A stretch of 64,000 bases of DNA from an uncultured Verrucomicrobiae bacterium (GCA_963797825.1 CAWCRR010000047.1:108060-172059), one strand, 5' to 3'. Positions 1,505 through 25,926 are shown, counted from the stretch's first letter. A program made the numbers and translations. Notes: generated from the sequence alone by a model not told the origin.

Positions 1505-3163
<1,659 letters not shown>

Positions 3164-4397: not shown

Positions 4398-4472
4398 AAT
4401 TATTTATATCAGTGAGCGAATGTTTCCTGGCAATAAAATTTCAATAATCCGTGTCCATCCGTGGTTAATTTT

Positions 4473-4571: not shown

Positions 4572-4573
4572 AG

Positions 4574-4765: not shown

Positions 4766-4778
4766 TTGGCTTGCGGAG

Positions 4779-4964: not shown

Positions 4965-5214
4965 ATACGTCTTTTCGATTACCAATCTTGCGAATGACTA
5001 TAACATCGCCTTCCACGTCAAACAAGATGCGATAGTCGCCCATGCGGAGGCGATACATGGCCTCGGCCTCGCGCAAGTGTTTGATGTTACTGTGCAAACC
5101 GGATTGAAGGCGTTCAATCTTGCGGATAATTTGCGCCCTTTCACGGGCAGGTAATCCGTCAAGGTCATCCAAGGCAGAAGCACCGTATTCGATTTGAAAA
5201 CGATGACCATTCAT
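4957..5214 (-). CDS. RelE/ParE-family type II toxin
   Basis: 85 aa. ...LPARERAQIIRKIERL...IKHLREAEAMYRLRMGDYRILFDVEGDVIVIRKIGNRKDVY is the typical RelE/StbE C-terminal signature. Confidence 0.75.
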   Translation of the reverse strand: MNGHRFQIEYGASALDDLDGLPARERAQIIRKIERLQSGLHSNIKHLREAEAMYRLRMGDYRILFDVEGDVIVIRKIGNRKDVYD

Positions 5215-5252
5215 CGCGTGTTAACCGGGTTCAATCTGAGTTTCATCCGTCT

Positions 5253-6544: not shown

Positions 6545-6838
6545 AACTTCCTTTTTTTCGTTTCCCCACTGTGTTTCAGCTTTCATTTAGCTAGGGACAT
6601 GCCAATAAGGAACTTGCGCGGAAATCCCCTTCGTCCGTTGCACAATTTAGAATTATTTGCACAATGCTGTAAGATTATCCCTAAATTCATTTCATTATCA
6701 CGCTCTTGGCATGGTTTGCGGTTTGTCCACGTCATACCCGCGTGGCGCCGACAATGTGATATGCAAACAATTGCATCGGCACCGCCCCCAGGAAACGCCG
6801 CGCCGACCGCGATCAAGTTGATGCATGATGCCGCAGTG

Positions 6839-9688
6839 TTATGGCGTTGAGATCCGATAATATCTCTGCTGAGATAATGTGTTGGTGTCGGTGAACTGCC
6901 ATGCGCCGCTGGGGGACGTGACGAAGTTTGTGAATATGGGCGTCCAATCTGTCGGCACTGCAAGGTTGGTCGTGGCCCATAGTCGTGACGTAACGTTGGT
7001 CAGGCCCTGGAAATCCAATGTCACGGTCCCGTTGGCTGACAGAGCGATGCTGGAAACTAGCGGTCCACCCCAAAGCGTCAACGATGCCACGGCGCTGGTG
7101 GCGCTACCCCAAGCATTGCTGACGATGACCGAATAATTGGCCGCGTCCCCGGCGGTAAACCCAGGAATGACCAGCGCGCAGTTGGTTGCCGCGACAATGG
7201 GAATGTTATTGGAAAGCCATTGGAAGGAATAAGGCGCCGTGCCAAAAAGCGTGACTGATAGAGTGACCCCCGCGCCCGTGGCTACGGACTCGCTTGCCGG
7301 CTGCAGAATGATTTCAGGCGGCAGGTCAAGGCGATAGAGTTCGCCAATTCCATCCGCGCCGCCATAAGAAGTCGTGCCGTAGAAATTGCCATCCGGTCCC
7401 AGGACTAAATTCCCTTTGGGATTTTCTCCGTTGGTGCCTGCAAAACTGGCCAAGGTGGCGAACGCGCCATTGGACGTCACCTCAAACACCGTGCCCCAGG
7501 GATTGCTGCCGCCTTCATAAGGCTCGATGCCATAAGTCGTGCCGTAGAAATTGCCGTCCGGCCCCAGAATCAAGGCCCCGTCAGGAGAACCGCTATCATT
7601 GCCGCCCGTGAAAGTGTAAAGGTTGGTCAACGCGCCATTGGGCGTTATCTCGAACACATTGCCGTATGTATTGCCGCCGTCTCCAGAGGTTGTGCCGTAG
7701 AAATTGCCGTTTGGCCCCAACGTCAAAGCGTAAGGATCCGCCCCATCGCTGCCGTCGGTAAAGGAATGGAGGGTCGTGAACCCGCCGGTATTCGTTTCTT
7801 CAAACACTGTGCCATAATATTTGGCGCCGCCACTGACGGTTGTGCCGTAGAAATTACCATTTGTCCCCAGCGCCAATCCCGCATAAGGATTTGCTCCATC
7901 ATTGCCGCCGGTAAAAGAGTAGAGCATGGTCAATACGCCGTTGGTTGTAACCTCAAACACCGTGCCCAAATCGTCGGTGCCGCCATTGGCTGTGGTGCCA
8001 TAGAAATTGCCGTTTGTCCCCAGGGTCAAGCTCGCTGCTGGATTTGCCCCGTTGGTGCTGGCGAAGCTGGCCAGCGTGGTCAAAACGCCGTTGGTGGTCA
8101 TCTCAAACACCGTGCCAAAACCCTTGATGCCGCCGGAATAGGTCGTGCCGTAGAAATTGCCATTTGTCCCCAAGGTCAAGTTTGCCTCTGGATTCGCCCC
8201 GTTGGTGCCGGCAAAGTTGACCAGCGTGGTAAAAACGCCGTTGGTGGTTTCCTCAAACGTTGTGCCATAACCATCCGGGCCCACATCAACCCAAAGACCA
8301 TTCGTGCCGCCTTGGTAGGTCGTGCCGTAAAAATTGCCGTTTGATCCCAGGGTCAAGCCCGCATAGGGGCTGGCGCCGTTGCCATTGGCAAAGCTGAACA
8401 GTATCGTCAACGTGCCGTTGGTCGTCACTTCAAATATTGTGCCGTTGCCGCTGCTGCCGCCTTCCCCTGTCGTGCCGTAAAAATTGCCGTTTGCCCCCAG
8501 GGCCAGCGTCCCCCCCGGATTCGATCCATTGGCGTTTGTAAACGTGAGTAAATGCGTAAACGTGCCGCCGATTGTCACTTCAAACAGCGTGCCGATACCG
8601 CTGCTGCCGCCTCCGGAAGTCGTGCCGTAGAAATTGCCATTCGGTCCCTGCGCCAAGCCCGCGTAAGGAAAAGCCCCATCGGAGTTGGTGTAAGTGTCCC
8701 TTTCGCCAATCAAAATGGAACGGCCTGCGGTAAACGTATAGAGCGTGGTCAACATGCCGTTGGGTGTCACCTTAAACAACGTGCCGCTGCCGGATTTACC
8801 GCCCCCACGTGTCGTCCCATAGAAATTGCCGTCAGCACCCAGCGTCAAGGCCGCCGTGGGATTCGCCCCGTCAAAGTTCGTGTCAGGTTCACCGATGCCG
8901 CTGTCATTGTAGTTTTCTGCGCTGAACGTATAAAAGTTGGTCCATGCGCCATTCGTGGTCACCTCAAACAGCGTGCCACTGTCGCCGCTGCCACCCATAG
9001 AAGTCGCTCCGTAGAAATTCCCGTTTGTTCCCAGGGTCAAGCCCGCGTACGGAGCCTCCCCATCCGTGTTGGTGTATTCCCCATTAACACTATCGTAATT
9101 GCCTGCCGTGAACGAATGGACCGTGGTCAAAACGCCATTGGTCGTCACCATGAATACCGTGCCGTCGCCACCGCTACCGCCTCCATAGGTCGTGCCGTAG
9201 AAATTGTCGTCAGGCCCCAGCGTCAAGCCCGCCTCTGGATTCGCCCCGTTGGTGCCGGCAAACGTGACCAGCGTCGTCAAGATGCCGTTGGTCGTTACCT
9301 TAAACACCGTGCCATTGCCACCAGTGCCGCCTTTCCACGTCGTGCCGTAGAAATTGCCGTCTGAGCCCAGCGCCAGGGCGGCCTGAGGCTGCGCACCGTC
9401 AGAGTTGGTCAAAAAGGTGCCGGCAACTGCCGTTGGCGGGCTGAACGAATACAGCCTGGTCATCACGCCATTGGTACTGACCTTAAATACCGCGCCATCA
9501 CCGCCGGTGCCACCAGCCCAAGTCGTGCTGTAGAAATTACCGTCCTGTCCTTCCACTAGAGCAGCATAAGGAATGGCCGGGCTCTCTGGAAATGAATAAA
9601 TCGGAACAATGCTTTGCCCCGCCACACGAGCCGTCAACCAGGCGAAGGCGAGGAATGTTAGACTCGCGTAGCGCAATTTCCATTTCAT
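6839..9688 (-). CDS. Secreted choice-of-anchor GloVer (Gloeo_Verruco) tandem-repeat protein with a C-terminal Ig-like domain and FYR-type terminal module
   Basis: 949 aa with a signal peptide (MKWKLRYASLTFLAFAWLTARVAG). About 19 repeats follow the pattern ..G.NP.AgLtLG.nGNFYGTT..GG..g.GTvFevTtNG.lTtL.sF. An Ig-like block follows (LQPASESVATGAGVTLSVTLFGTAPYSFQW...ANYSVIVSN). The protein ends ...WQFTDTNTLSQQRYYRISTP. Confidence 0.8.
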   Translation of the reverse strand: MKWKLRYASLTFLAFAWLTARVAGQSIVPIYSFPESPAIPYAALVEGQDGNFYSTTWAGGTGGDGAVFKVSTNGVMTRLYSFSPPTAVAGTFLTNSDGAQPQAALALGSDGNFYGTTWKGGTGGNGTVFKVTTNGILTTLVTFAGTNGANPEAGLTLGPDDNFYGTTYGGGSGGDGTVFMVTTNGVLTTVHSFTAGNYDSVNGEYTNTDGEAPYAGLTLGTNGNFYGATSMGGSGDSGTLFEVTTNGAWTNFYTFSAENYNDSGIGEPDTNFDGANPTAALTLGADGNFYGTTRGGGKSGSGTLFKVTPNGMLTTLYTFTAGRSILIGERDTYTNSDGAFPYAGLAQGPNGNFYGTTSGGGSSGIGTLFEVTIGGTFTHLLTFTNANGSNPGGTLALGANGNFYGTTGEGGSSGNGTIFEVTTNGTLTILFSFANGNGASPYAGLTLGSNGNFYGTTYQGGTNGLWVDVGPDGYGTTFEETTNGVFTTLVNFAGTNGANPEANLTLGTNGNFYGTTYSGGIKGFGTVFEMTTNGVLTTLASFASTNGANPAASLTLGTNGNFYGTTANGGTDDLGTVFEVTTNGVLTMLYSFTGGNDGANPYAGLALGTNGNFYGTTVSGGAKYYGTVFEETNTGGFTTLHSFTDGSDGADPYALTLGPNGNFYGTTSGDGGNTYGNVFEITPNGALTNLYTFTGGNDSGSPDGALILGPDGNFYGTTYGIEPYEGGSNPWGTVFEVTSNGAFATLASFAGTNGENPKGNLVLGPDGNFYGTTSYGGADGIGELYRLDLPPEIILQPASESVATGAGVTLSVTLFGTAPYSFQWLSNNIPIVAATNCALVIPGFTAGDAANYSVIVSNAWGSATSAVASLTLWGGPLVSSIALSANGTVTLDFQGLTNVTSRLWATTNLAVPTDWTPIFTNFVTSPSGAWQFTDTNTLSQQRYYRISTP

Positions 9689-9731
9689 AACGAACAGGAT
9701 TTTTTGATTTGAGCTTGAAAATAATAGCTAA

Positions 9732-10076
9732 TTATGGAGATGTGGTCAATAAGAATACGACATATGCCTTGGCGCCATTTTTAAACAACGACATGGGAAT
9801 GGATACATGCTCGACGTCGTATTTGGCGTGGATGCCTTCGCGGATCAGGGCATTGCCACCGTCAATCGCCGGGCGCACCAGGGTGAACATTTTGCTTTCA
9901 TCGTTCACATAAATTTCCGTGCGGCCATAATACGAACTGGCGTAGGCGATGGTCAGCGTGGCCTTGCCGCTCGGCGGCGCGTTGGTGAGATTGAAATGGA
10001 CCCGCCATTTCCACGGCGTCCACACGCCATCTTTCAGGTATCCGCACTGGCCGCGACTCTCTGCCCAAAACGCCGT
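9732..10076 (-). pseudogene. Fragment resembling the C-terminal beta-sandwich of PL4 rhamnogalacturonan-lyase-like proteins
   Basis: Only the last ~115 aa of ORF 9732..10343 look protein-like: ...TPWKWRVHFNLTNAPPSGKATLTIAYASSYYGRTEIYVNDES...DGGNALIREGIHAKYDVEHVSIPMSLFKNGA. The upstream part overlaps the preceding gene in another frame and has no credible start. Confidence 0.3.
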
Positions 10077-10756
10077 GCGGCCCGCTGTTGGAAGGCATAG
10101 GCGGCGCCAGCCGCCAGTAGTGGAATCATTCCCCGGTACCATGGCATATGCAGAAAACTGTAAATGGAAGTGCCCAGGCCAAAACCCAGGGAGAAAATAT
10201 GAGTATCCGGGTCGAGCCTGGTGTAGGTAATAACTGCAATCATCGAACAAATGGCACAGCAAATCGCCATCCACTTCAGTTTTACCGCCACGTGTCGCGC
10301 CAGCCAACAGAACAGGAATGTCGCCAGCGCAATTGCGAGACAATCCATGTATTGGACCGCCGCGGCGAAATAAGGGTTGCCGCCGGCAGCATGAAGTTTT
10401 TTTGCATCAAAGCCAAAGCCCAGCCCGGATACCAACAAGAACTCGAGGGCCAGGAACAGGAGCCAGATCACCGGATAGGCCAGGACCGGCAGCAGGCCGA
10501 AAGTGACCACGTAGTGCCGCCCCCACCAACTCGATCGCCGCACGGTTTCCATCATTTGCTCTGCCACGGCCAGCGGGTCGCCCAGCGACGCATTCGCGCG
10601 GGCTTCCGCCTCCGCTTCGGACAAGCCCCCGGCCAGGCCGGCTTGTTTCAAATCTTCACGGTGCTCAGCCACTTCCCGGACCAGCCGGCGGACATGAGTG
10701 ATTGGACAGCCCAGTTTCAGCAGTTGCGCGCGCAATGGTTCAATGAAATCACGCAT
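10034..10756 (-). CDS. PadR-associated polytopic membrane protein (permease-prefix-type N-terminus)
   Basis: 240 aa. The N-terminus ...LVREVAEHREDLKQAGLAGGLSEAEAEARANASLGDP is followed by 5-6 TM segments. It overlaps the padR stop by 8 nt. Confidence 0.55.
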   Translation of the reverse strand: MRDFIEPLRAQLLKLGCPITHVRRLVREVAEHREDLKQAGLAGGLSEAEAEARANASLGDPLAVAEQMMETVRRSSWWGRHYVVTFGLLPVLAYPVIWLLFLALEFLLVSGLGFGFDAKKLHAAGGNPYFAAAVQYMDCLAIALATFLFCWLARHVAVKLKWMAICCAICSMIAVITYTRLDPDTHIFSLGFGLGTSIYSFLHMPWYRGMIPLLAAGAAYAFQQRAARRFGQRVAASADT

Positions 10757-11168
10757 ATTTTTCCTCCATCAAAAGCGCGACGCCTGACGTCACGCGGTTC
10801 CATTCGCTCGTCAGGGCTTCCAGCCGTTTCCCGCCCCGGGCGGTGAGCTTGTAATAATTGCGGCTGCGGCCATCCACTTCCTGGCGGCGGCTGCTCACGA
10901 GCTTTTCCGCCTCCAAATAATGCAGATAGGGATAAATGCAACCTTCGCCGAAGGACAGCGCCGTGCCAGACCGGGTCCGGATTTCCTCGACGATCTGGTA
11001 CCCATACATTTCCTGGCGGGCCAACAACCGCAGCACCAGCAATTCCGGGACCCCATTCAAAAAGCTGGGATTGGTTTTCTTCATTCCGGCCATCATACCT
11101 ATAACTGTGATGCTTGTCAACATAAAATTAAACCCTTCCTTCGTAGGATGCGATTGGATGCGCGGCAC
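10749..11168 (-). CDS. PadR-family transcriptional regulator; start uncertain, possibly the ATG at 11084
   Basis: FLNGVPELLVLRLLARQEMYGYQIVEEIRTRSGTALSFGEGCIYPYLHYLEAEKLVSSRRQEVDGRSRNYYKLTARG is the PadR winged-helix signature. Confidence 0.85.
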   Translation of the reverse strand: MPRIQSHPTKEGFNFMLTSITVIGMMAGMKKTNPSFLNGVPELLVLRLLARQEMYGYQIVEEIRTRSGTALSFGEGCIYPYLHYLEAEKLVSSRRQEVDGRSRNYYKLTARGGKRLEALTSEWNRVTSGVALLMEEKYA

Positions 11169-11201
11169 CGTGAGCAGGCGAACCGCGTCGGGGCAGACTA
11201 A

Positions 11202-11984
11202 TCAATTTTGCGCGGGGCGGGCGTAAACTTTCAGGTCCTGAAATTCAAAACGTGCGTCATCGGTTTTTGATTGCACATAAATTCCGATTTTATCCAGCGT
11301 CTTGTTTCCCTTCGCCACCACCCATGACCCCGCATAGTTGCCATCAAGATAGTAGCTGAAGGTTGCGCGGCGGCCGTCAGCCGAGTCGAAATGGACCCCG
11401 AGAATATGCGGCATGTTCCAATCAAACGTCACAGGCCGCCCATGATCATCGAAGGCAATCGGGACCCACGTGGTTCCGTTCCAGGCGAGCAGTCCGGACG
11501 GGCCACTCGTCAAATCGCTTCCGACCCGCAACTGATCAGAATCAAATAGTTCGACGCCCAATCCGCCCTCGTCGCTCAACCGGCGCAGGGTGATCTCAAA
11601 ATAATCGCCGGCCCGCAAGCCTCGGCCCAGGATGGCGGGATTGGCCAGATTCAGCGTCGCCGATCCCCACGGAATGTCATGGCCACTCGGAATGTCCAGG
11701 CGCAAGCTATGGTTTAAAATTTGTTCATTGACCAATCCGTAGTGCGCGGCTTGCGTCCATCCCCGCCCGAGATTCTTCCCGTCCGGCCGGTCAAATTTGT
11801 CTTCAAAAACCTGGACCAATTTTGATTTGATTGCCGTTGTCGGATTCTTTTCCGATGGCGAGCCAGGTTGAGCCGCGCGTAAAGGAGCGGCCCAAAGGAG
11901 CAGGATTCCCAGAACGATTAATCGCGGCCCGCAAAACCCTGGACTAAAAAACTGCGCAAAATACATTCGGCAACCTACACCCAT
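11202..11984 (-). CDS. Secreted hypothetical protein
   Basis: ORF track. Signal peptide LIVLGILLLWAAPLRAAQP. No recognisable catalytic motif. The start is probably the ATG at 11966. Confidence 0.45.
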   Translation of the reverse strand: MGVGCRMYFAQFFSPGFCGPRLIVLGILLLWAAPLRAAQPGSPSEKNPTTAIKSKLVQVFEDKFDRPDGKNLGRGWTQAAHYGLVNEQILNHSLRLDIPSGHDIPWGSATLNLANPAILGRGLRAGDYFEITLRRLSDEGGLGVELFDSDQLRVGSDLTSGPSGLLAWNGTTWVPIAFDDHGRPVTFDWNMPHILGVHFDSADGRRATFSYYLDGNYAGSWVVAKGNKTLDKIGIYVQSKTDDARFEFQDLKVYARPAQN

Positions 11985-12010
11985 GGCAATTCCTATTCAA
12001 TGGCGATTCC

Positions 12011-13840
12011 CTACTGCGTGACGACCCGGTAAAAGCGCGTGGTGAACTGGCTGGAATACAGATCCTCAAAATCATAATCGCCGCTGTCCCCGTCTTGAAA
12101 CGGTGTTCCCACAGTCGTCCAATGCGTCAGGTCCGTTGATGCCTGCACCACATAATTGAGGGCCGGGTCCGCCGAAAATTCCAGCACCGGTATTTGATTT
12201 TCCTGGCCGATGGCGAGGTCGGTGACCGGTTCGGCGGGGTGGCCATAAAGATCAGGAATCTGGTAAGCCCGATAACAGGTATATCCAAGATAACCCACCT
12301 TGCTGTCGCCATAATTAAAAAACGAAAGATCAAAGACCACCTGCGGGATCGGGTCATGGGTATATTCGATGAGCCGCACCATCGTCGCATTCGGGGCGTA
12401 TGGGTCGGGATGAACACCGTTGACGTAGTTCACATAGCCATAGGCGGCGAAGACGTTTCGGGTTTGGGGAAGCCATTGCACCCTTCCTACGATTGGAGTA
12501 AAGAGCCGGTCCTGATTCGTCTGCCACGCCGAATTCCATACCTCGGATACCGTCATGTTGGTTTGATTGATGCTGTATTCCACAGCGCTGGTGTAATTGC
12601 TCGGGTCCGCCACCGGGGGGTCGAAAGGGCTTGACTGGTAAATGTCATCGTTGAAGACCATCAGGGTGCCCTGGGGCGTGAGATACGGCGCGTGCTGGCC
12701 ATAGTTCCAATTGAACGGCGTGCTCGCCGGCGTAAGCAGATATTGCTGCCAATTCGCCCCCCAAAGCTCATGCGGCCCCAGAATCCATTCCAGTTGCCCC
12801 GTGGACCGCGAGAATTTGTAAACCGTGTTCTGATCGCGCAGGGAAACAATGATGGAATTGTCGTTGGTGTCGTCAATCAAGGCGTTGGCATGCTCGTTGT
12901 CTATTCCATTGGGAGCGCCGGAAAACTCCCCATAGGTCAGATAGGTCACCCGCGTCGGGTCCAGCACCGCCAGCGGCGACCACTCGTTCACGAGCGCCGA
13001 GTTGGTATAGGAAATTTCCACGATCGGATTGTCGTCAACGTTGGTCTTTACCAATAAGGGAGGATTTGAATTGGTATCATTGGCCGGGAAATTGGAAACC
13101 ACTTCAGTGACATCGCTCAGGTAGAGGATGGTTCCATGGCTGGTGACGATCCCCTCGTGCAAATCGACTGGATAATTCACCGGCGGAGCCCATGTTCTGA
13201 CCGTTTGTCCGAGCATATTCACTTCAATGAATTCATTCGACGGCGGATTTAGTTGCAGGAACAAATCGCCATTGTCCATTTGCCGCACATCCGCATAGGC
13301 GGAAATGGAGGCGCTGGTCGGAACCGGGCTATACCAGACCACGTTCCCGAAATTATCCAGGATGGCGATGTAGTCGCCAAGCCTGGTATAAGCGGTATCA
13401 ATGACCATCAACATATATCCCGGCTCCATTTCATCCGGTTGGTTGGTCAAGACCGTGTAGGTGGGAAAGTTTGCGGGCAGGGGCGGGCTGACAAACGTCA
13501 ACAACTCCGGCGCGATGGCCGCGTTTCGATTCCTGTCATAAACCGTGACCTGGATCAAGTTCGCCTGATTGGACTTGAAGCCAAGCAGGATCTCTGAATG
13601 CGTCGTGCCGTAATCGTAATAATCCTTTTCCCAAATGCTGGTCCCATCGCTGACTAGAACGCTGATCCTTGAATCCACGTCCGTGCTCAACTGCAATGTT
13701 CCTGCCAGCGGCGCATTCGTTGCGGGGGTAAACGAAGGTCCCGACAAAATGGTTACCGCGTAGGCCCACGGTGAAATCGTCAGTACGACTGCCGTCCAAC
13801 ACGTGATTGCGAACCTCCGCGGTAAAAAATGATGATTCAT
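12011..13840 (-). CDS. Secreted aryl-sulfate sulfotransferase (ASST)-family beta-propeller protein with FYR-type C-terminal module
   Basis: 609 aa with a signal peptide. ASST-like blocks: DLHEGIVTSHGTILYL, DNEHANALIDDTNDNSIIVSLRDQNTVYKFSRSTGQLEWILG and WNYGQHAPYLTPQGTLMVFNDD. It ends ...THWTTVGTPFQDG...TTRFYRVVTQ. Confidence 0.65.
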   Translation of the reverse strand: MNHHFLPRRFAITCWTAVVLTISPWAYAVTILSGPSFTPATNAPLAGTLQLSTDVDSRISVLVSDGTSIWEKDYYDYGTTHSEILLGFKSNQANLIQVTVYDRNRNAAIAPELLTFVSPPLPANFPTYTVLTNQPDEMEPGYMLMVIDTAYTRLGDYIAILDNFGNVVWYSPVPTSASISAYADVRQMDNGDLFLQLNPPSNEFIEVNMLGQTVRTWAPPVNYPVDLHEGIVTSHGTILYLSDVTEVVSNFPANDTNSNPPLLVKTNVDDNPIVEISYTNSALVNEWSPLAVLDPTRVTYLTYGEFSGAPNGIDNEHANALIDDTNDNSIIVSLRDQNTVYKFSRSTGQLEWILGPHELWGANWQQYLLTPASTPFNWNYGQHAPYLTPQGTLMVFNDDIYQSSPFDPPVADPSNYTSAVEYSINQTNMTVSEVWNSAWQTNQDRLFTPIVGRVQWLPQTRNVFAAYGYVNYVNGVHPDPYAPNATMVRLIEYTHDPIPQVVFDLSFFNYGDSKVGYLGYTCYRAYQIPDLYGHPAEPVTDLAIGQENQIPVLEFSADPALNYVVQASTDLTHWTTVGTPFQDGDSGDYDFEDLYSSQFTTRFYRVVTQ

Positions 13841-14294
13841 GATGTTTAATTCAATTAAACAGCCGGGTTAAGTGTATTTGTTTCGTCCGCGAACCATCGC
13901 GGCCTGTTGAATATCCACCCCTGAATTAGTCTATTTCTGACGAAAAAAGTCGCAAGTTTTTTAATTCTTTGCGTGGGCCGAGATGTGAAAATGTCTGAAA
14001 AATTCGTCTGCGATTGACCGTTCTCCCCCTTCTCGACATTGTCGGTATTCGCAAGGACAATTGGAAGTTTCCATCTTCCATCTCAAATCGCCGCTCATTC
14101 GGTTACCAACAAAAATGCATTTGCAGCATTCCCAGCGAAAGTAAACCTGATTTACCGTTGGTTCTAACGCACTCCTCACCAAATTTCCTCAGGCCACCGC
14201 GACGGAATGCGCGGAGTAACGGGTTCAAACCACGTTTAAGGTCTCGACGGGCAACCGGTTGCCACCCGGCGATGCCGATGCGAACCGATTCAGT

Positions 14295-15647
14295 TTAAAA
14301 AAGACTTGGGCTTACACGGTAGTAGGCCGATGGGTAGTTGGCTCTATCCGCTGACACGCTAAATAAGAGGTTGCTGCCGGTCCCTTTCGATTCAGGCACG
14401 TTCTGCCAGTTTGGCGGGTTTATGCTTGTGCTCCGCTGCAGTTGGTAATAGCGGCGTGCTGAGGTGTACTGAACATTCACGGCGAAATTGGTACTCCACG
14501 CCAGCCCCAGGCCCGTGGCCGGATTCGTGGGACACGTGTCGAGCAACCAGTCTTGCAAAACCGTTCGACCGTCGCCGCCCAGTTGCTGCGATTCCACGCT
14601 ATCGTTCGTTGATAACCCGTAATATATCAACCAGGAGAATGGAATCCCATGGGTCGTTGATTGCGCGAGGGCGTATATTGATTTGTCGGCGGGATTGAAA
14701 GCGTAGAGGACGTTGGTGTGGCTGTCGAAGATCATGATCGTGGTCGAAAACGGCATATTTGTGATCTGAGTGGCATTGCCATGAATCGGGAAGGTCGTCG
14801 TATCCCAAATGTTGGTCTGCCCGAAAGCGACCGAGCCATCGCCGTTGAGAGCGTAGATCTGTTCCGGGAACTCGCCAATCTGGTCGGCAAAATTCGTTGC
14901 CGTAAACATTATTTGTCCATACCCCAGGTAATGGCTGTCTCCAGAAACCGAGTAATTGTCGTAATCCCAACCGTAAGGGTATGGGCTATAATACGCCGTA
15001 TCAAGCAGGGCAATCGTATCTGTCGCTACATCAAAATCTCCCATGGCGCCGAGGTTTCCGGTGTAAGCATATTGCCCGAATAGATGCGTTTTATCCGCAG
15101 AGATCACCATCCGGGTCTTAATATAGTTAAAAGCCCCCAAATCCGTCGCGGTATCGGTATCCACTGAATGAACTTCGTTGCCATCATTGTAATAAAGACG
15201 TCCGGAACGACCGGCAGTAACGTACACCGCGGAGACCAAAGTGATAATGGAATTGGCGAGGGTCTGGTTGGTAAGAGCCACCACGCCAATGCGCCAGGAG
15301 CCGTACAGGCCGGTGCCCGGCCCTTGGTTCGCGACATACAGGAAGTTGTCCGACGCGTCTATGTCCAGATCCGAGGGGCTATCTCCTACATAAATGCTTT
15401 TCGAGACCGATGCCGTGCGAAGGTCGATAAACAGAACCTCGCTGTTCACCTGGTCAATGGCATAGAGCCATGGGCGGCCAGGATCGGGCCGCATCCACAC
15501 GACATTTTCTCCCAAAGGGATTTTTTCGCAGATTGCCCAGGTGGCCCCGGTCGCGGTGAGGCTTATCAGCCCAAGCGCCGCGCCAACAAGTGGAGCCAAG
15601 AGCCGTCGAAAAGGCGATCGGCGTGTAGAAACTTCGTTAGTGCTCAT
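14295..15647 (-). CDS. Secreted beta-propeller (YVTN/YncE-like) protein with FYR-type C-terminal module
   Basis: 450 aa with a signal peptide. Contains ...IYVGDSPSDLDIDASDNFLYVANQGPG... and ends ...PPNWQNVPESKGTGSNLLFSV...SAYYRVSPSLF. Confidence 0.55.
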   Translation of the reverse strand: MSTNEVSTRRSPFRRLLAPLVGAALGLISLTATGATWAICEKIPLGENVVWMRPDPGRPWLYAIDQVNSEVLFIDLRTASVSKSIYVGDSPSDLDIDASDNFLYVANQGPGTGLYGSWRIGVVALTNQTLANSIITLVSAVYVTAGRSGRLYYNDGNEVHSVDTDTATDLGAFNYIKTRMVISADKTHLFGQYAYTGNLGAMGDFDVATDTIALLDTAYYSPYPYGWDYDNYSVSGDSHYLGYGQIMFTATNFADQIGEFPEQIYALNGDGSVAFGQTNIWDTTTFPIHGNATQITNMPFSTTIMIFDSHTNVLYAFNPADKSIYALAQSTTHGIPFSWLIYYGLSTNDSVESQQLGGDGRTVLQDWLLDTCPTNPATGLGLAWSTNFAVNVQYTSARRYYQLQRSTSINPPNWQNVPESKGTGSNLLFSVSADRANYPSAYYRVSPSLF

Positions 15648-15801
15648 GCGGAACCTTTCTGTCGATGCGGCAGATCTAACACCGTGTGGCTCGAGCGTTT
15701 CGCTCAGATTTATTTTCCGTTATGCAACTTCCCAGAATTGCATATTGCACAAATAAACCTCAACCTTCGTGGAAAAGTATGTCAAAAAAATTGGGAGATT
15801 G

Positions 15802-15847
15802 TCAACCCACATTTTTTGACACCCACATTTTTTGACACCCACATTTT
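15802..15847. repeat. Three tandem copies of a 16-bp unit (gacacccacatttttt) in a divergent promoter region
   Basis: tcaacccacatttttt (15802..15817), gacacccacatttttt (15818..15833) and gacacccacatttt (15834..15847). The array lies between the divergent genes 14295..15647 (-) and 16040..17452 (+). Confidence 0.9.
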
Positions 15848-15866
15848 CCGGCTTCGCCTTCCCGTA

Positions 15867-15960
15867 TCATTCCACCGTGACACTCTTGGCCAAGTTGCGC
15901 GGCTTGTCCACATCGCATCCGCGCGCCACCGCCGTAGTCTGTGAACAGTGGCTGGAAGCC
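15867..15960 (-). pseudogene. Displaced 3' fragment of a second glmS allele
   Basis: The reverse strand reads ...[20 protein letters not shown], identical in protein to the end of the intact glmS (20916..). Positions 15867..15929 align with 20916..20978 at 56 of 63 nt, and all 7 differences are synonymous third positions. Homology decays beyond about 15930. Confidence 0.8.
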
Positions 15961-16039
15961 GTAACGAACGGTCCGGATTTATGCCCCGGCTTTGAACGCC
16001 ATCATCGTATTTTGAGTCTTAATCAGTAATCCTGAATCT

Positions 16040-17452
16040 ATGAATAAGGCATTTTATTGGTGTTTGATTGCGGGCCTGCTTTGTTCCAACGCCGCCATCG
16101 GACAATCATGGCAAATCCATGAGTGGGGCACGTTCACGTCCTTGCAGGACGAATCGGGCCAGGCCATCGGCTGGATCAACACGGACGATGAACCGGTCCC
16201 TTCGTTTGTTCATAGCGATTTTCTCCCAATCCTACCGGCCGGTGCGCCGGTTCCCGAACTCTTTAAAGGACTGCCGCGATGTCATCCTGATGTGACTATG
16301 CGATTGGAAACGCCGGTCATCTATTTTCATCCTCCGGCGGGAGCACACAATGGCCAAAGCGCCAGCGTTCAGGTAAAATTTCGTGGAGGTTGGTTGACGC
16401 AATTTTATCCCGATGCCATACCCATTTCGCCGGGTTTGACGAACGGCTTTCATTTACGCTCCGATACCGTGGGCACTCTTGCATGGAACAACCTGCAAGT
16501 GGGCGGCGATTGGCCGCTCACGGAAGCCACCGAAGATAATGTTTGGACATCCCCACGCAACGTGGATGCATCGTTGGTACAGAATGACAGCGGTGAAAGT
16601 GAAAAATTTTTGTTTTATCGTGGCGTCGGCCACATTGATTCTCCCCTCAAAGTCAGTCGCGACAGCGTCGCCGATGAACTGGTATTTCACAGCCAGATCC
16701 CGGACCTGCCCGGAGACTCCTCCTTAAAAGTTGATTTTGCCTGGCTGGTGGATATCCGTCCGGATGGCCGCATTGCCTTTCGCACTCTCCCCGCGTTTGC
16801 CCTCAGCCATGATGCCAACGATACCTTGCTGCGCACTCCCGCCACCTTCACGCCGGAGAATTTCAGCGCCGGTAATTTGGAAGCGTTGAAAAGCTCGTTG
16901 AAATCGGCCCTGGTTTCCGAGGGCCTTTTCCCGGACGAAGCCCAGGCCCTGTTGAATACCTGGCAGATCTCTTATTTTAAAAGTCCCGGCCTGCGGGTAT
17001 TTTTTCTCGTTCCCCGCGAATGGACCGATTTTTACCTGCCGTTACAGATTTCCCTCCCGTCCCAAATCAATCGCGTGATGGTTGGCCGCATCGAGGTGGT
17101 GACGCCTGAGCAGCGGGCCAAATTGCGAAAAATTTCGGAATCGTCTCCTGTCTCCATCAGCAGTCAACAACAACAATTTTTGAAAGCTCTGCCTCTGGCC
17201 TTGGTAAATGGTGGTCCCAATTCGTACCAACGCCTTATGGAGGGACAAACTCCGCTTTCCAGTGTAGTTTCCATCCCGCCAAGCTACCAAACCTATCTGG
17301 ACCTTGGCCGGTTTCGTAATGCCTTGCTTCTGGATGAGGAAAAGAAATGGCCCACCCCCGGCCTGAGAACGTTTATTAATGGCTATGGCTTAACGGGCTA
17401 TAAAACCGACGAAAGTTTCTCCGGCAAGCTGACGAGTATCACTCCGCGGTGA
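16040..17452 (+). CDS. Secreted hypothetical protein (470 aa)
   Basis: ORF track. Signal peptide MNKAFYWCLIAGLLCSNAAIGQ. No recognised domain. Confidence 0.55.
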   Translation: MNKAFYWCLIAGLLCSNAAIGQSWQIHEWGTFTSLQDESGQAIGWINTDDEPVPSFVHSDFLPILPAGAPVPELFKGLPRCHPDVTMRLETPVIYFHPPAGAHNGQSASVQVKFRGGWLTQFYPDAIPISPGLTNGFHLRSDTVGTLAWNNLQVGGDWPLTEATEDNVWTSPRNVDASLVQNDSGESEKFLFYRGVGHIDSPLKVSRDSVADELVFHSQIPDLPGDSSLKVDFAWLVDIRPDGRIAFRTLPAFALSHDANDTLLRTPATFTPENFSAGNLEALKSSLKSALVSEGLFPDEAQALLNTWQISYFKSPGLRVFFLVPREWTDFYLPLQISLPSQINRVMVGRIEVVTPEQRAKLRKISESSPVSISSQQQQFLKALPLALVNGGPNSYQRLMEGQTPLSSVVSIPPSYQTYLDLGRFRNALLLDEEKKWPTPGLRTFINGYGLTGYKTDESFSGKLTSITPR

Positions 17453-17500
17453 CGCCTTGGCCAAATTTCTCGGTTTTTATTCATTCCGGCGAATGATCAT

Positions 17501-18205
17501 TCAAAATTTGTTCCATTTGCACTGGTGTAAAGATCTTTTTTGCAGCGTCAACGAATTCAATTGATCCGGCATGGTAATTTTGGCTAAAAACACGCACATT
17601 ACCGATCCTCCTTTCATCTTCTCAGCCAGACGGAACTCAATATTTCCCTCCGGAAATTGCGCAACCAGATATTTGGTGAATTTGCTGGTGCTGGCAAACG
17701 TGGCTCCTTTTGCTTCCAATCCGTTTACAATCCCATCCAGAATGAAGATGGCCCGCCGCATTAGCTTCTTGGACACCCACAAATCAAAATGTCCATCCTT
17801 TATCTGAACCGGCCCATGTTAAACGACCGCTGCGTCTTTCATGTCAGTATATTGAGCGTGGACTCGCCGGTGCAATTGGCGAACGTCATCAACTGCGGAT
17901 GGTTCGTGCGTCGCCATGTGTTTTGGACGATCAACTGGACTTTTTTCTATAGGCGCGGACCGGTCAAGGGGTGCAGCATCGATTGATGTCTGGCCAATGG
18001 GCGGCAACGGCTCGCGCTCAATCGACCAGCTGCGGGCGACGAGTTGCCAGTGCCCCGAACCAGGTCGCGGTATATTCATTTTCTGGCAGGCATTGGCGAT
18101 CTTGTTAATGGTAACGCCCCATTCTGTGGACAGTTTGCTTAGCGGTTTTTCCCAGACTGCGTTGTAAAGGGCCTGACGCGTGATTTTTATTTTCGGAGTG
18201 CTCAT
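17501..18205 (-). pseudogene. Hypothetical gene split by a single in-frame TAA (17819..17821)
   Basis: ORFs 17819..18205 and 17501..17782 are in the same frame. Translating through the stop gives ...DMKDAAVV*HGPVQIKDGHFDLWVSKKLMRRAIFILDGIVNGLEAKGATF... The N-terminus ITRQALYNAVWEKPLSKLSTEWGVTINKIANACQKMNIPRPGSGHW recalls a family I have seen in mobile-element contexts. Confidence 0.5.
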
Positions 18206-18434
18206 GGCGAGAAATTCACTTGCCGGGTTTCATTTAGACTTCTGAATCTTCATGGGTTCTTTTCCTGCACAATTTCTATTCCAACTTGATCATTCGTCCA
18301 GATCCAAATCTTCCCTCTCCCATCAACAAATGAAATTAGCATGCAGGGCGGGCGCAGTGGGCCTGAAGCGCATTCATGGGCAAGCTGACCACTGACTCCA
18401 TCGTTCCGCCGGGAAGGGAAAAGGAAAACCATAA

Positions 18435-18995
18435 TTGACAACTGAGAAAATGCGCGGCGACAATGCGTCTGTGCAAAAGAACAAGACCGTGCTGGCATTT
18501 TTGGACGACATTTATGAAGACTTGGAACTGTGGTATCCAAAGCTGAGGTTGGAGGAGGCGGGTTATTCGCTGAAGTGCGCCGCGCCGGAAATCAAGACTT
18601 TCGCAGGCAAGCACGGTTATCCTGCGCAGGCGGATTTGCTGCTGAAAGATGCGCGAAGCGAGGATTTTTGCGGGTTGCTCGTGCCAGGCGGCTTCATGCC
18701 GGACAAACTGCGGCGCGATGCCAGGGTGCTTTCCCTGACGCGAGAATTTTATGAGGCCGGCAAGTTGGTGGCATTCATCTGCCATGGCGGGTGGATTCCA
18801 ATCTCAGCCAAAATTCTGAAGGGGAAACGCGTCACCGGCTCGTTGGGCATCAAAGACGATTTGGAAAATGCCGGGGGCATCTGGGTGAACGAGCCGGTGG
18901 TAGAGGACGGCCACCTGATCTCCAGCCGTACCCCGCGTGATCTCCCGGCGTTTGGCCAGGCATTGGTGCGCTTTCTCGACACACACTCGCACTGA
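18435..18995 (+). CDS. DJ-1/PfpI-family protein (class I glutamine amidotransferase-like)
   Basis: ...VLAFLDDIYEDLELWYPKLRLEEAGY...GLLVPGGFMPDKLRRD...GKLVAFICHGGWIPISAKILKGKRVTG...VEDGHLISSRTPRDLPAF, with the nucleophile-elbow Cys in ICHG. Confidence 0.85.
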   Translation: MTTEKMRGDNASVQKNKTVLAFLDDIYEDLELWYPKLRLEEAGYSLKCAAPEIKTFAGKHGYPAQADLLLKDARSEDFCGLLVPGGFMPDKLRRDARVLSLTREFYEAGKLVAFICHGGWIPISAKILKGKRVTGSLGIKDDLENAGGIWVNEPVVEDGHLISSRTPRDLPAFGQALVRFLDTHSH

Positions 18996-19198
18996 AGTTT
19001 TAGACCTTACGGCTTTTTTGTCTTTTGCGGGAAGGACCCCAACGTTTGAAGCGTCTTGCCTCACCAATCTCCCCCTTTGCCAATCGCACCCTCTCGCGCG
19101 AGGACAATGTAGTATGCGAGCAATTCCCGGAGTGCGCCTTTCCAAGATTCTAAAAAATAATTTGTCTGATTTTGCGGTGGGCGGGCGTTTAATGTTGA

Positions 19199-20908
19199 AT
19201 GCTGACTATGGAAGATGCCGCCTTGTTGCAGGAATATGCCCGCACACAATCGGAATCGGCCTTTGCCACGCTCGTGGAAAGGCACATCGCGCTGGTGTAT
19301 TCAGCGGCGTGGCGTCAGGTGCGTGACCGGCAGTTGGCGGAGGACGTGTCCCAGGCCGTTTTCCTCATCCTCGCGCGCAAAGCAGGGCGATTGTCGCAGC
19401 ATTCCGGCTTATCTGGTTGGTTGCTCAAAGCCACGCGCTATGCCGCCAGTGCTCAAATTCGCGCAAACAGCCGCCGCACCCAACGTGAACAAGAGGCGTA
19501 TATGCAATCCTCATTGAATGATCAGACTGGAGTAAACGCAGATGCCTCCTGGATACGGTTGGAACCATTGCTGGACGAAGCGATGGCGTCGTTGGGCGAG
19601 ACCGACCGCACTGCCTTGGCGCTCCGATATTTCGAGAACAAGTCCTTGCGCGAAATTTCTGTGGCGTTGCGGATGGAAGAAGGAGCGGCGCAAAAGCGGG
19701 TGGCGAGGGCGCTGGAAAAATTGCGAGTGCGTTTCACAAAACGCGGAGTGAACTTGCCATCCGCAGAGATCGCTGAATCCATGGCCGCGAACTCAGTACT
19801 GCCAGTGCCGTTGGGATTGGCCACTTTGGCAACGGCGGCGGCAAAGGGTGCGGCGGGCAGTTCAATCCTGAGCCTTGTGAATGGATCGTTGAAACTTATG
19901 GCATGGGCAAAAGCGAAAATGACGATAGCCGTCGGCGTGGGCGCATTGCTCGTAGGGGCGACGACGACTGTAATCCTGACAGAGGGAGGACCTGATTGCG
20001 AATATCAAGGCACGATAACGATTGTTTACCCGATGATTCCAAATGGACAACCCACGAACCACTATACGTTTCGTTTGTTGTCAAAGCCGCCGGATTGGGA
20101 ATTATTTTTGACGTCATCAAATGTAAACTACGAGGCCTTTTCCTCACCCAAACAGACCTATGAAGTATATTTGTTCACAAACACTCCACCCTCGGGGCCG
20201 ATGAACACTTGCCAAATCAGTATCATACCGGGTCCAAGGCCAATGTTTGAAATGGGGGCGGAACATATTTGGCTGGCTTTGTTCTCAAGTGACACCTACA
20301 TCAAAATGCGACCTGGAATGCTAGATCCCGGCATGGCTACGATCCAACCTTCACTGATTGACCAAATAAGTGAGACGAACGGCGATACCTCTCCCCGCCA
20401 AATAAGTTGGACCAACGTATTCGGAATCCGAAATCGGACTTACGGAGACTTTCACTGGCTGGCTGACACGAACACGCCTGGAGGTTTGAACTTTCCAACT
20501 GAAAGCCAGTGGACAATGCATTTCGTTACCACAAACGGCGATTGGAAAACCAACATCTTTTCGGACCTGGTCATTGACCGCGTGGAGCCTTTGACAGAAA
20601 ACCTGGTTCGTATCCCTAAAATCCCCGGTCGCAACTTTGTTGTCGACTACCGGCAATGTGACTTTTCGAAACTTGGGTATGAGACGGCCGTAAAACAATA
20701 TAATCTTCAAGATGGCGAAGGACTTGAAAAAAACACGAAAGCGATCTTACAGCAAATCAGGCAGACTGCGTCGCTCACTCCTGCGGTTCGCTATCGTTTG
20801 CAATTGGCACAGCAGTCGCGCCGCAAATGGATATGGCTTTCCGCAACATTGATCCTCTGTGCTGTCGCCATTATTGCGGGATTAATCAAGAGACAACGCA
20901 GAATTTAA
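19199..20908 (+). CDS. ECF-type sigma-70 factor fused to a ~370-aa membrane-spanning C-terminal extension
   Basis: Region 2 ([41 protein letters not shown]) and region 4 ([35 protein letters not shown]). A TM segment follows ([21 protein letters not shown]), then a ~290-aa domain and a terminal TM ([20 protein letters not shown]). Confidence 0.8.
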
Positions 20909-20915
20909 GGCAACC

Positions 20916-22757
20916 TCATTCCACCGTGACGCTTTTGGCCAAATTGCGCGGTTTGTCCACGTCGCACCCGCGTGCCACGGCAATATGATACGCAAACAAT
21001 TGCAACGGCACCGCCGCCAGAATGGGATTCAGCGCCTCCAGCGTCTTCGGCAAATAGATGACATCGTTCGCGACCTTCTTGATCGCCTTGTCCCCTTCCG
21101 TCGCCAGCGCGATGATCGGGCCCCGGCGCGCGCGAATCATCGCCAGGTTGGCCATCGTCTTTTCGTACATTGAATCGCCCGGCACCAGGAAAACCGTCGG
21201 CGTCTTTTTGTCGATCAACGCAATTGGCCCGTGCTTCATCTCCGCCGCGGAATAGCCTTCCGCATGGATATAAGAAATCTCCTTCAGCTTGAGCGCGCCC
21301 TCCAGCGCCAGTGGAAACGTGTAACCGCGCCCCAGAAAAAAGAAATCGCCGGCCTTCGCATATTTTTTCGAAACCTTTTTCAACGCGCCATCCTGCGCGA
21401 TAATTTTTTCGATCTGTTTCGGCAATTGCAACAGCGCCCGAAGCACCGGCAATGCGTGGGGCGCGGAAAGATTCCGCATCCGTCCCAGGTGGATCGCCAG
21501 TAATGTGAGGATGGTCAGCGTCGAGACGAACGCCTTTGTGGAGGCCACGCCGATTTCCGGGCCGGCGTGCATGTAGATGCCGCCGTCGGCTTCCCGCGCG
21601 ATGGTGCTGCCCACCACATTGACGATGGCCAGCGCCTTGTGCCCGCGCCGTTTGGCCTCGCGCAACGCAGCCAGTGTGTCCGCTGTCTCGCCCGATTGCG
21701 AGAGCACCAGGATGACCGTGTTCTTTTCCAGCGGTGCGTTCCGGTAACAAAATTCATGCGCAAATTCCACCTCCACCGGGATGCCCGCAAATTCCTCGAT
21801 CAGATATTCGCCCACCAGCGCCGCGTGCCAACTCGTGCCGCTGGCCGCGATGACAATGCGGTCGATCGCACGCAATTCCTTTTCGCTCAGGTTCAACCCG
21901 CCGAACTTCGCCGTGGCGTTCTTCAAGTCCACGCGCCCGCGCAATGCGTTCTCGATGGTGCGCGGTTGCTCGAGGATTTCCTTGAGCATGAAATGCGCGT
22001 GCTCGCCGCGGATCGCATCCTCCAGGTCAAACTCCAGCCGGCTGATCTGGATCTTCGCCGTGTCCGCGCCCAGGTTCTGCACCTCGAACCGCTTCGCCGT
22101 CACCGTCGCCACGTCGTAATCGTTCAGGTACACGACGTTTTTTGTATGCGCAATGATTGCCTGGGAATCGCTCGCCAGAAAATTTTCACCCCGGCCGATG
22201 CCGATGATCAGCGGCGAACCGCGCCGCGCCCCGACAATCGTCTCCGGTTCATCCGCGCAGATCACCGCGATGCCATACGTCCCAATCACCTCGCGCAACG
22301 CGTCGCAGACCGCCCGCGTCAAATCTTTCGTCCGTTGTTTCTCGTAATTCGCGCCGATCATGTGCGCGAGCACTTCCGTGTCCGTGTCGGATTTGAACGT
22401 ATGCCCCGCCGCCAGCAGCTTGTCCTTGAGCCGGTCATAATTTTCGATGACGCCGTTATGGACCACCGCAATGCGCTCCGCCTGGTCGAAGTGCGGATGG
22501 CAATTGGCATCCGAAGGCACTCCATGCGTGGCCCAGCGCGTATGGCCGATGCCTAGGTTTCCGGAGACCGGGTCGGATTGCAGGAGCGCGCCCAGGCCGC
22601 TGTCGATGCGGCCCTGTTTTTTGCGCATCACCAGGTCCGCCGTTTGCAGGATCGCCACCCCGGCGCTGTCATAACCGCGATATTCCAGCCGCCGCAACCC
22701 TTCCAACAGGATGGGCGACGCCGCTTTCTTTCCGACATATCCGATGATTCCGCACAT
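20916..22757 (-). CDS. glmS: Glutamine--fructose-6-phosphate aminotransferase (isomerizing)
   Basis: 613 aa. MCGIIGYVGKK..., two SIS domains, and the C-terminus ...[19 protein letters not shown]. Confidence 0.97.
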   Translation of the reverse strand: MCGIIGYVGKKAASPILLEGLRRLEYRGYDSAGVAILQTADLVMRKKQGRIDSGLGALLQSDPVSGNLGIGHTRWATHGVPSDANCHPHFDQAERIAVVHNGVIENYDRLKDKLLAAGHTFKSDTDTEVLAHMIGANYEKQRTKDLTRAVCDALREVIGTYGIAVICADEPETIVGARRGSPLIIGIGRGENFLASDSQAIIAHTKNVVYLNDYDVATVTAKRFEVQNLGADTAKIQISRLEFDLEDAIRGEHAHFMLKEILEQPRTIENALRGRVDLKNATAKFGGLNLSEKELRAIDRIVIAASGTSWHAALVGEYLIEEFAGIPVEVEFAHEFCYRNAPLEKNTVILVLSQSGETADTLAALREAKRRGHKALAIVNVVGSTIAREADGGIYMHAGPEIGVASTKAFVSTLTILTLLAIHLGRMRNLSAPHALPVLRALLQLPKQIEKIIAQDGALKKVSKKYAKAGDFFFLGRGYTFPLALEGALKLKEISYIHAEGYSAAEMKHGPIALIDKKTPTVFLVPGDSMYEKTMANLAMIRARRGPIIALATEGDKAIKKVANDVIYLPKTLEALNPILAAVPLQLFAYHIAVARGCDVDKPRNLAKSVTVE

Positions 22758-25655: not shown

Positions 25656-25796
25656 ATCATCCAATTTCCATCCACCATCTTCGTCCTTTCCTTTCTTCCC
25701 CACGGCGGAATGTGTCGGTGAGGCCGCAAAAATGGAAGTGTCCTCGCTGTTCCTTCTCCAAGGGGAGAAGGATGAGGGGGTCTAAAAACTAAATCC

Positions 25797-25926
25797 GTTA
25801 AACCACCTCCTCACCCCGGCCCTCTCCTCCGACCTGCCGCGACGGTGCGCGAGCACGGCGGGGGAGAGGGAGAAACGCTCGGCGCTTTTGTTTGAAATTC
25901 GGTCAGCGGAATGTGTTTGAATGGCT
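25797..25926 (+). repeat. Dispersed hairpin element, family B (copy 1; loop expanded by 29 nt)
   Basis: gttaaaccacctcctcaccccggccctctcctccg[29-nt loop]ggggagagggagaaacgctcggcgcttttgtttgaaattcggtcagcggaatg... aligns with the reverse complement of 51281..51384; the first 35 nt match at 34/35. Confidence 0.85.

Follow-up and report, generated by a model that had tools for sequence, protein, structure and literature searches.

We analyzed the region downstream of glmS in a 64,000 nt stretch of DNA from an uncultured Verrucomicrobiae bacterium (GCA_963797825.1, CAWCRR010000047.1:108060-172059). The whole stretch is here referred to as the window, and positions are counted from its first letter. 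It carries one intact glmS gene and, downstream of it, displaced copies of the glmS 3' end, which are distributed over a region of accessory genes reaching to kdsB and pyrG. The encoded GlmS shared 76-90% protein identity with the GlmS of 160 Verrucomicrobiia loci, the closest being 89-90% identical, and the host belongs to the Verrucomicrobiia (Limisphaerales / subdivision 3). The features which define the locus were, from glmS outward:

20916..22757, minus strand: intact glmS, 613 aa (Pfam GATase_6/7 and two SIS domains)
~19038-19135, minus strand: weak, decayed remnant of the glmS terminus, between a sigma factor gene and a DJ-1 gene (local alignment, nhmmer, tblastn)
17439-17476, minus strand: weak, decayed remnant of the glmS terminus (local alignment, nhmmer, translation)
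15867-15932, minus strand: displaced glmS 3' end, still perfectly coding (alignment to 20916-20981)
6687-6791, minus strand: decayed glmS terminus of ~105 nt that contains an internal stop codon and an indel (blastn, tblastn, self-BLAST, nhmmer)
5253-5993, minus strand: kdsB (Pfam)
1505-3118, minus strand: pyrG (Pfam)

The resident copy of the repeated terminus comprises the last 66 nt of glmS (20916-20981). Its counterpart at 15867-15932 was identical to it at 58 of 66 nt, and all eight differences were synonymous. An initial annotation of the window had reported this pair as 15867..15929 and 20916..20978 in the same orientation, with 56 of 63 nt identical and seven synonymous third-position differences. 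Both stretches and their orientation were verified in the sequence and the counts reproduced, with the similarity extending one codon further. Upstream of the 66-nt block the similarity to the glmS terminus stopped abruptly and the flanks were unrelated. In a self-BLAST of the window the pair was found with E = 1.8e-16, far above chance. The first 15 nt including the stop codon, which were again identical in both copies as reported, occurred at only these two sites within the window and represent the longest identical run between the two copies. The initial annotation had considered this stretch as a possible recombination core. In other loci, however, the two copies are not alike in their last codons and stop, so that the 15-nt identity is not a general core.

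Since all differences were synonymous, the fragment at 15867 appears to be the former functional terminus of a different glmS allele, which backs the earlier suggestion of a formerly selected allele. A comparison aimed at the source lineage of the 63-nt fragment was uninformative, as the fragment and the resident end were equidistant from 80 relatives (~52/63 for both). Within glmS itself no clear mosaic breakpoint was seen in comparison with 11 relatives.

The other remnants were found by searching the window with the glmS 3' end (blastn, tblastn, nhmmer and local alignment). The remnant at 6687-6791 is unambiguous. It was matched by blastn over 74 nt with 86% identity and one gap (E = 1e-11), by self-BLAST (E = 5e-17) and by nhmmer (E = 1.7e-15). 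The tblastn match begins LGAVPMQLFAYHIV, and the translation reads LGAVPMQLFAYHIVGATRV, a stop, RGQTANHAKSVIMK and a second stop. This remnant adjoins kdsB and would be the oldest one, representing the original glmS end before the insertions.

Two further remnants were weak. The one at 17439-17476 encodes KPRNLAK, followed after a 1-nt deletion by VTAE and a stop, and overlaps the stop of a convergent 470-aa gene. Its local alignment score of 48 was matched by 3 of 600 random window segments (nhmmer E = 0.94). It bears a CCG-AGA-AAT allele (Arg = AGA) which is present in the intact glmS of three related loci (L010, L016 and L044). The one at ~19038-19135 consists of two frame-shifted tblastn pieces, ELLAYYIVLAR and ARGCDWQRGR; its score of 44 was matched by 8 of 600 random segments (nhmmer E = 0.11). 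It faces the end of the DJ-1 gene in the same way as the intact glmS end faces a 90%-identical DJ-1 in L006 and L088.

All glmS-end copies of the window were located downstream of glmS and on its strand, and with the exception of 15867 their decay rises outward. According to the window self-BLAST, such displaced-end debris exists for glmS and only one other gene, a uracil-DNA glycosylase (UDG) gene. The lone footprint described initially had thus missed the clear remnant at 6687-6791 and the two weak ones.

Gene content and borders of the accessory region

In related loci the kdsB-pyrG pair starts 8 nt (L080) or 112 nt (L083) after glmS, and it is found within a few kb of it in L033, L046, L012, L025 and L004. 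Judged from this gene order, kdsB-pyrG are the ancestral downstream neighbours of glmS. As the pair lies just beyond the 6687 remnant in the window, the 14.1 kb from 6792 to 20915 are extra DNA. The gene at 14295..15647, which had initially been proposed as the neighbour before the insertion, belongs to the older part of this region, and some relatives show kdsB-pyrG after glmS instead.

The two sides of glmS differed strongly. Upstream synteny was conserved, with HAD present in 135 and PFK in 119 of the 160 related loci, whereas the downstream side was hypervariable: 391 open reading frames (ORFs) from 80 loci fell into 306 clusters. In the window the genes upstream of glmS encode HAD, PFK, a type III PKS, a methyltransferase, ThiE, a PilT-like protein and a glycosyltransferase.

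The accessory DNA between glmS and kdsB-pyrG (6792-20915) is partitioned by the glmS-end remnants and contains the following genes (GC3, GC content at third codon positions):

19199..20908, plus strand: extracytoplasmic function (ECF) sigma factor fused to a long C-terminal region (Sigma70_r2/r4, TIGR02937; GC3 0.57)
18435..18995, plus strand: DJ-1/PfpI gene (PF01965, TIGR01382)
17501..18205, minus strand: pseudogene with a single in-frame TAA, located between DAAVV and HGPVQ in the frame 1 translation; no family match
16040..17452, plus strand: 470-aa protein with a hydrophobic N-terminus (translation; no Pfam/NCBIfam match)
6839..15647, minus strand: older accessory block with all genes co-oriented with glmS (GC3 0.60-0.67), consisting of the next five entries
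14295-15647, minus strand: 450-aa beta-propeller-like protein
12011-13840, minus strand: arylsulfotransferase
11202-11984, minus strand: 260-aa ORF
9732-10756, minus strand: overlapping 240-aa ORF and ORF with similarity to carbohydrate-binding modules (CBM-like)
6839-9688, minus strand: 949-aa GloVer-repeat protein

The gene for the ECF sigma fusion is convergent with glmS at a stop-to-stop distance of 7 nt. An orthologue of the DJ-1 gene sits 31 nt after glmS in L006 and L088. Translation and Pfam/NCBIfam searches confirmed the content given earlier for the 5 kb next to glmS, namely a secreted hypothetical protein, a broken gene, DJ-1/PfpI and the ECF sigma fusion, with no recombinase. The composition of the inserted DNA also set it apart, with a GC3 of 0.55-0.70 for the genes of the region vs 0.77-0.82 for glmS, kdsB, pyrG and PFK. 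By composition and gene content the inserted DNA is accessory.

Beside glmS in the 160 relatives, the genes of this region were represented only by DJ-1, by weak ECF sigma and GloVer-repeat matches and by one weak match to the pseudogene. The 470-aa protein had no homologue in these loci, and the genes of the older block had none beside glmS except for distant GloVer-repeat proteins. Large GloVer-repeat (choice-of-anchor) proteins directly follow glmS in L030, L040 and L100, with 35-37% identity to the 949-aa protein of the window, and may be a recurrent cargo type.

ORFs of the window of at least 110 aa were scanned with Pfam and NCBIfam, and among those scanned no integrase, transposase or resolvase was found. 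A search for integrase remnants in the interval between 15867 and glmS was likewise negative with both collections. Scans of the window for tRNAs and Rfam families returned nothing.

Beyond the accessory region a Mrr-type restriction endonuclease gene of low GC content (3486-4397, Pfam; GC3 0.39) lies between kdsB and pyrG. In L080 and L033 the two genes are neighbours, whereas here the restriction gene and a small ORF separate them (3119-5252). The segment 3119-5252 looks like a separate insertion and showed no flanking repeat.

The glmS gene is the classical target of Tn7, which inserts ~23-25 bp beyond the glmS stop with a 5-bp duplication, has TGT...ACA ends and encodes TnsABCD. Tn7 and Tn7-like elements take advantage of the extremely conserved sequence that encodes the C-terminus of GlmS, and islands accumulate downstream of the gene, as in the window. 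A Tn7-like transposition into attTn7 could further be suggested by two copies of TGTGGGTGTCAAAAAA and one of TGTGGGTTGACA, which start 23 nt beyond the stop codon of the fragment at 15867 and resemble the Tn7 end, beginning TGTGGGCG. The shortest fragments found in this study (~36 nt) also match the size of the TnsD footprint. However, no TnsA/B/C/D, tniQ, rve or AAA transposition genes were present among the scanned ORFs, and neither the insertion spacing nor the 5-bp duplication of Tn7 was found in the window. The TGTGGG array is one-sided, with no partner end found. The stop of the sigma gene is only 7 nt away from the glmS stop and thereby nearer than the attTn7 insertion point, and Tn7 does not duplicate glmS coding sequence. 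We therefore regard this explanation as largely refuted and its probability as very close to nil. The reference to glmS as a well-known insertion hotspot of this kind does not apply here, since a hotspot of the Tn7 type receives DNA downstream of the gene and leaves the coding sequence unduplicated. The TGTGGG-type tandem itself extends over 15800-15852 (minus-strand reading) in the upstream region of the 450-aa gene and may be a promoter/operator region of this gene.

Displaced glmS termini in related loci

A profile covering the terminal 111 nt of glmS was searched against the 160 related Verrucomicrobiia loci with a cut-off of E < 0.01. In total, 26 displaced glmS termini were found, spread over 20 loci. 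Of the 109 loci whose downstream sequence covered 3 kb or more, 17 were positive. All 26 were located downstream of glmS on the same strand, with none in 1.30 Mb of upstream sequence and none in antisense. The displaced termini of the relatives always reached the stop codon. Their 5' boundaries were found at model positions 45-46, 51-58, 62 and 68-77 and occasionally below 20. They cluster at positions 45-62 without one single site.

Consensus positions 48-67 (window 20960-20979), within the stretch coding for AVARGCDV, contain an imperfect palindrome, CGTCGC-N8-GCGACG. Many of the fragment boundaries are located within or beside this palindrome, and it is weaker in the glmS of the window itself.

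Three compact cassettes were recurrent: a GNAT acetyltransferase gene of ~0.5 kb, a GreA-like gene of ~0.55 kb and a pair of genes for a flavin mononucleotide (FMN) reductase and an aldo-keto reductase of 1.8 kb. Each carries its own characteristic glmS fragment at the distal border, and in the single-gene cassettes the gene starts and ends no more than tens of nt away from the adjacent fragments. The order of the cassettes and their distance from glmS varied across 16 or more loci, some of them on contigs of 0.1-1.1 Mb. Perfect repeats were found as well. In L075 an insert of 5.6 kb with genes for an MFS transporter, a creatininase, an enolase-family protein, an SDR protein and one protein without known family is bounded by perfect 84-nt repeats running past the stop codon, and L044 contains a perfect 56-nt repeat.

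Nine well-preserved displaced termini were compared with their resident ends. Of the codons that differed, 37 were synonymous and 4 were not, whereas in decayed fragments the differences were at random positions. Due to this excess of synonymous changes, resident and displaced ends are best understood as different functional alleles, and the incoming terminus would accordingly be foreign or, less simply, glmS would have been overwritten later.

These data also bear on a duplication in place, in which a staggered break or tandem duplication copied the last 40-110 nt during the insertion of foreign DNA, in the manner of a very long target-site duplication, and the copies diverged afterwards. The perfect repeats of 109 nt (at the UDG gene), 84 nt (L075) and 56 nt (L044) would be expected from such events. 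Yet the displaced copy should then decay at all codon positions, while 37 of 41 differing codons in the nine fragments and 8 of 8 differences in the 15867 fragment were synonymous. As an additional replacement of the glmS allele would be needed in many lineages, we consider this route very improbable.

The nucleotide identity of cassettes between genomes was about as high as that of glmS. As the divergence of the cassettes tracks that of glmS, the arrays seem to be old and largely vertically inherited, with occasional reshuffling and lineage-specific additions. A recent horizontal spread of cassettes was rejected on the same grounds; most of the sharing is old.

Seven verrucomicrobial contigs (L005, L006, L008, L015, L029, L038 and L072), with a glmS 76-84% identical to that of the window and shared synteny, derive from metagenome-assembled genomes labelled as Methylomirabilota, Pseudomonadales, Bifidobacteriaceae, Acidoferrum and others. 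These labels are probably due to mis-binning or mislabelling.

No recombinase domain was found among the ORFs scanned inside about a dozen related arrays, the 5.6-kb insert of L075 and the single-gene cassettes included. Phage_integrase was absent from the families listed for 130 integrase-sized ORFs downstream of glmS and hence has at most two members among them. Phage-like genes (DUF5131, HNH and DnaB) directly follow glmS in L167 (250-12153), and a BRO-N gene is present at the site downstream of glmS in L001 (11849-12682). Immediately downstream of glmS in L195 an IS30-like transposase is encoded (879-1961). We also considered the glmS terminus as a phage attP site. Phage and plasmid collections, searched by tblastn with the C-terminus of GlmS, and viral contigs, scanned with a degenerate pattern, both yielded only full-length or contig-truncated glmS.

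The initial annotation had explained the layout by an integrated element which supplied a replacement 3' end and later decayed. In this version a single self-mobile element of 5 kb, or originally larger, would have inserted at the glmS end by means of its own integrase and then lost its recombinase. Direct repeats combined with a replacement terminus are indeed the classic architecture of integrase-bearing elements; one pseudogene is present in the interval, and phage-like genes occupy the same site in L167. Against this, the interval holds two further candidate glmS remnants, and another 9 kb of accessory DNA and a fourth terminus lie beyond it. No integrase remnant was detected by Pfam or NCBIfam. 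About a dozen arrays, among them the fresh insert of L075, showed no integrase among the scanned ORFs, cassettes of 0.5 kb are too small to encode one, and the limit of two Phage_integrase members among the 130 integrase-sized downstream ORFs also speaks against such elements. An element which lost its recombinase later is thus not favoured, and we rate the single-element explanation as improbable.

Possible routes of insertion

Taken together, we consider it likely that the region 6792-20915 is an additive island of accessory genes which was built by serial insertions into the final 36-105 nt of the glmS gene. The number of these insertions would be two at the minimum and probably four. This proposal draws on the repeated termini and their polarity, the break in synteny, the recurrence, the variable cassette order, the lack of recombinase genes and the synonymous-only divergence. 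From these we infer a recombination step in which incoming DNA with its own conserved glmS terminus would recombine with the resident terminus. The glmS gene would be left intact each time and end in the incoming allele, while the old functional terminus would be pushed downstream to mark a cassette boundary. The copy at 15867-15932 would be the best preserved of these. The initial layout, an insertion at the glmS end that supplied a replacement terminus and left glmS intact, is retained in this respect. What had been described as a single decayed 5-kb element would rather be the glmS-proximal portion of a stack of 14.1 kb, in which at least two displaced ends are clear and two are weak.

Several points weigh against serial insertion as proposed here. 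The fragments do not share one 5' boundary but start at model positions from 45 to 77 and in some cases below 20, a poor fit to a single site-specific enzyme. Differences that are only synonymous could also be explained by a later overwriting of glmS with a foreign allele. The divergence of the cassettes tracks that of glmS, which indicates a slow mobility. Taken alone, two of the four window remnants reach only marginal significance, and the related loci are mostly metagenome-assembled. Furthermore, neither a recombinase nor an excised circle nor an empty-site allele was observed, with the genome being absent from the indexed runs and the protein collection. A metagenome scan for closer relatives and empty sites yielded nothing above 89% identity, with only one soil run found, which contained 6% of the words.

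Since the inserted DNA does not encode the enzyme, any enzyme involved must act in trans. We tentatively prefer the integrase of a glmS-targeting integrative or phage-like element, which was provided in trans or has since been lost, followed by homologous reshuffling between the repeated termini; we give this version somewhat less than an even chance. It is favoured by the identical runs of at most 15 nt between the two window copies, the clustering of boundaries around the palindrome (48-67) and the phage-like DNA at the site in relatives.

A homology-driven capture without a site-specific recombinase, in which RecA inserts DNA with glmS-end borders, is nearly as likely as the integrase version, though doubtful when taken by itself. 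It could proceed by a Campbell-type single crossover of a circle or by a double crossover in which the body of glmS serves as the left and a displaced fragment as the right arm. New junctions between cassette and fragment would arise from rare illegitimate joins inside the terminus, which is almost invariant in the clade. This route accounts for the lack of a recombinase among the scanned ORFs, for the slow divergence along vertical descent and for the spread of the fragment boundaries. The fragment lengths are continuous from ~36 to 105 nt, equal or exceed the usual minimum for pairing and lie inside the block of high conservation. The perfect 84-nt repeats past the stop in L075 and a like signature at the unrelated genes purD, thiE, UDG and a helicase-like gene agree with it as well. 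However, the window copies have no identical run longer than 15 nt and are thus a poor substrate for RecA. The clustering of the boundaries at 45-62 around the imperfect palindrome CGTCGC-N8-GCGACG would not be expected, and homology alone leaves the first joining of a foreign gene to an internal point of glmS unexplained.

Comparable arrangements are known from other systems. Among them are tRNA-anchored additive islands and tycheposons, which follow the same logic of island building (10.1101/2020.12.28.424599; PMC10872708). At tRNA genes of Prochlorococcus and Methylophilaceae, integration is likewise repeated at one site with older inserts pushed further away, and the cargo modules are interspersed with partial copies of the 3' end of the target. 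These modules range from a few hundred bp to tens of kb, carry metabolic or defensive cargo and in many cases lack an integrase. The features by which additive flexible genomic islands are recognized (PMC10872708) were present here, i.e. a shared site, one conserved flank, variable content and partial copies of the flank gene between modules. In contrast to the tRNA islands, the target in Verrucomicrobiia is the coding terminus of an essential protein gene. Each event must therefore regenerate the correct reading frame, as the synonymous-only differences show. Additionally, the repeats are 36-105 nt long at glmS compared to ~20-40 at tRNA genes, the host is different, and no integrase-bearing member of the glmS system was seen in the 160 loci. 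In the literature we found nothing specific on islands at the glmS 3' end.

Phage 21 and e14 integrate at the 3' end of icd in E. coli. The element brings a substitute 3' end with mainly synonymous differences, and the original end is left at the far side. As at glmS, the housekeeping gene remains intact and its original 3' end becomes a pseudo-fragment. Two features of integrative elements are present in the window, direct repeats of the target 3' end in gene orientation and a substitute terminus which is probably of foreign allelic origin. Phage 21 and e14, however, represent single insertions with their own integrase beside the att site, whereas the inserts at glmS are stacked, lack an integrase and in part consist of a single gene.

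Integron arrays resemble the glmS arrays in their compact, often single-gene cassettes without own recombinase, in the repeat after each cassette, in the fixed anchor and in the variable order. They differ by the intI gene, which is missing beside the glmS anchor of the window, and by cassette orientation, which is not uniform there. Moreover, the glmS repeats are copies of coding sequence and not hairpin-forming attC sites. Single-strand DNA of six fragments, examined for attC-like hairpins, folded no better than shuffled sequences (z-scores -1.4 to +0.8).

The pdif modules of Acinetobacter plasmids and the IMEX elements at dif use XerC/XerD sites of a defined 28-bp structure. They share with the glmS arrays cargo-only modules which are bounded by short copies of a chromosomal recombination site, with the recombinase encoded elsewhere. 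No dif-like site was identified at the glmS island, however, and the boundaries of its repeats vary.

Displaced 3' ends at other genes

The window contains a second case. Here a 2.3-kb segment with an MGH1-like glycoside hydrolase gene (53863-55917) is flanked by a perfect direct repeat of 109 nt (53549-53657 and 55952-56060) and interrupts a SMUG-type UDG gene directly upstream of the stop codon. The first copy forms the 3' part of the UDG gene without its stop and reads on for 41 extra codons, while the second ends with GIWK and a stop one codon past the repeat. Homologues of the UDG have ~245 aa, and their alignments cover ~84-88% of the 334-aa window ORF, roughly up to the position of the stop in copy 2. 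The architecture is the same as at glmS, but the copies are identical.

In relatives, displaced 3' ends were found for purD (two copies), thiE and a helicase-like gene without family match whose C-terminus reads DPDAGKKMFDVLRSAIQ before the stop (two copies); the positions are L005 810-2845, L149 817-3984 and L060 10050-13634. Given the displaced ends at purD, thiE and UDG, the duplication of a 3' end together with an insertion is not specific for glmS, and glmS would be a hotspot of a wider process. It was by far the most frequent anchor, with ~12% of the loci affected compared to a handful of cases among ~3000 other genes (rough estimate). A general mode of integrase-less gene addition at the 3' ends of conserved genes in Verrucomicrobiia, in which terminus copies of 36-110 nt serve as portable recombination sites, glmS is the main attI-like anchor of a cassette array and an as yet undescribed trans-acting or host recombination system takes up and reorders the cassettes, is conceivable but in our view unlikely. 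With the signature also present at purD, thiE and UDG, a census over whole genomes seems worthwhile.

The coding terminus of glmS represents a recurrent site of gene gain in an abundant but poorly studied soil phylum, distinct from the intergenic attTn7 of Tn7, and the cast-off gene ends provide a readable stratigraphy of acquisitions. If indeed no cassette-encoded enzyme is needed, this would be a simple and general route to accessory islands and possibly also a neutral landing pad for the engineering of these bacteria.

Finally, an inverted similarity of 123 nt was noted between 51294-51385 and 25794-25916 (69% identity, E = 4e-12), both located in intergenic or gene-edge regions.

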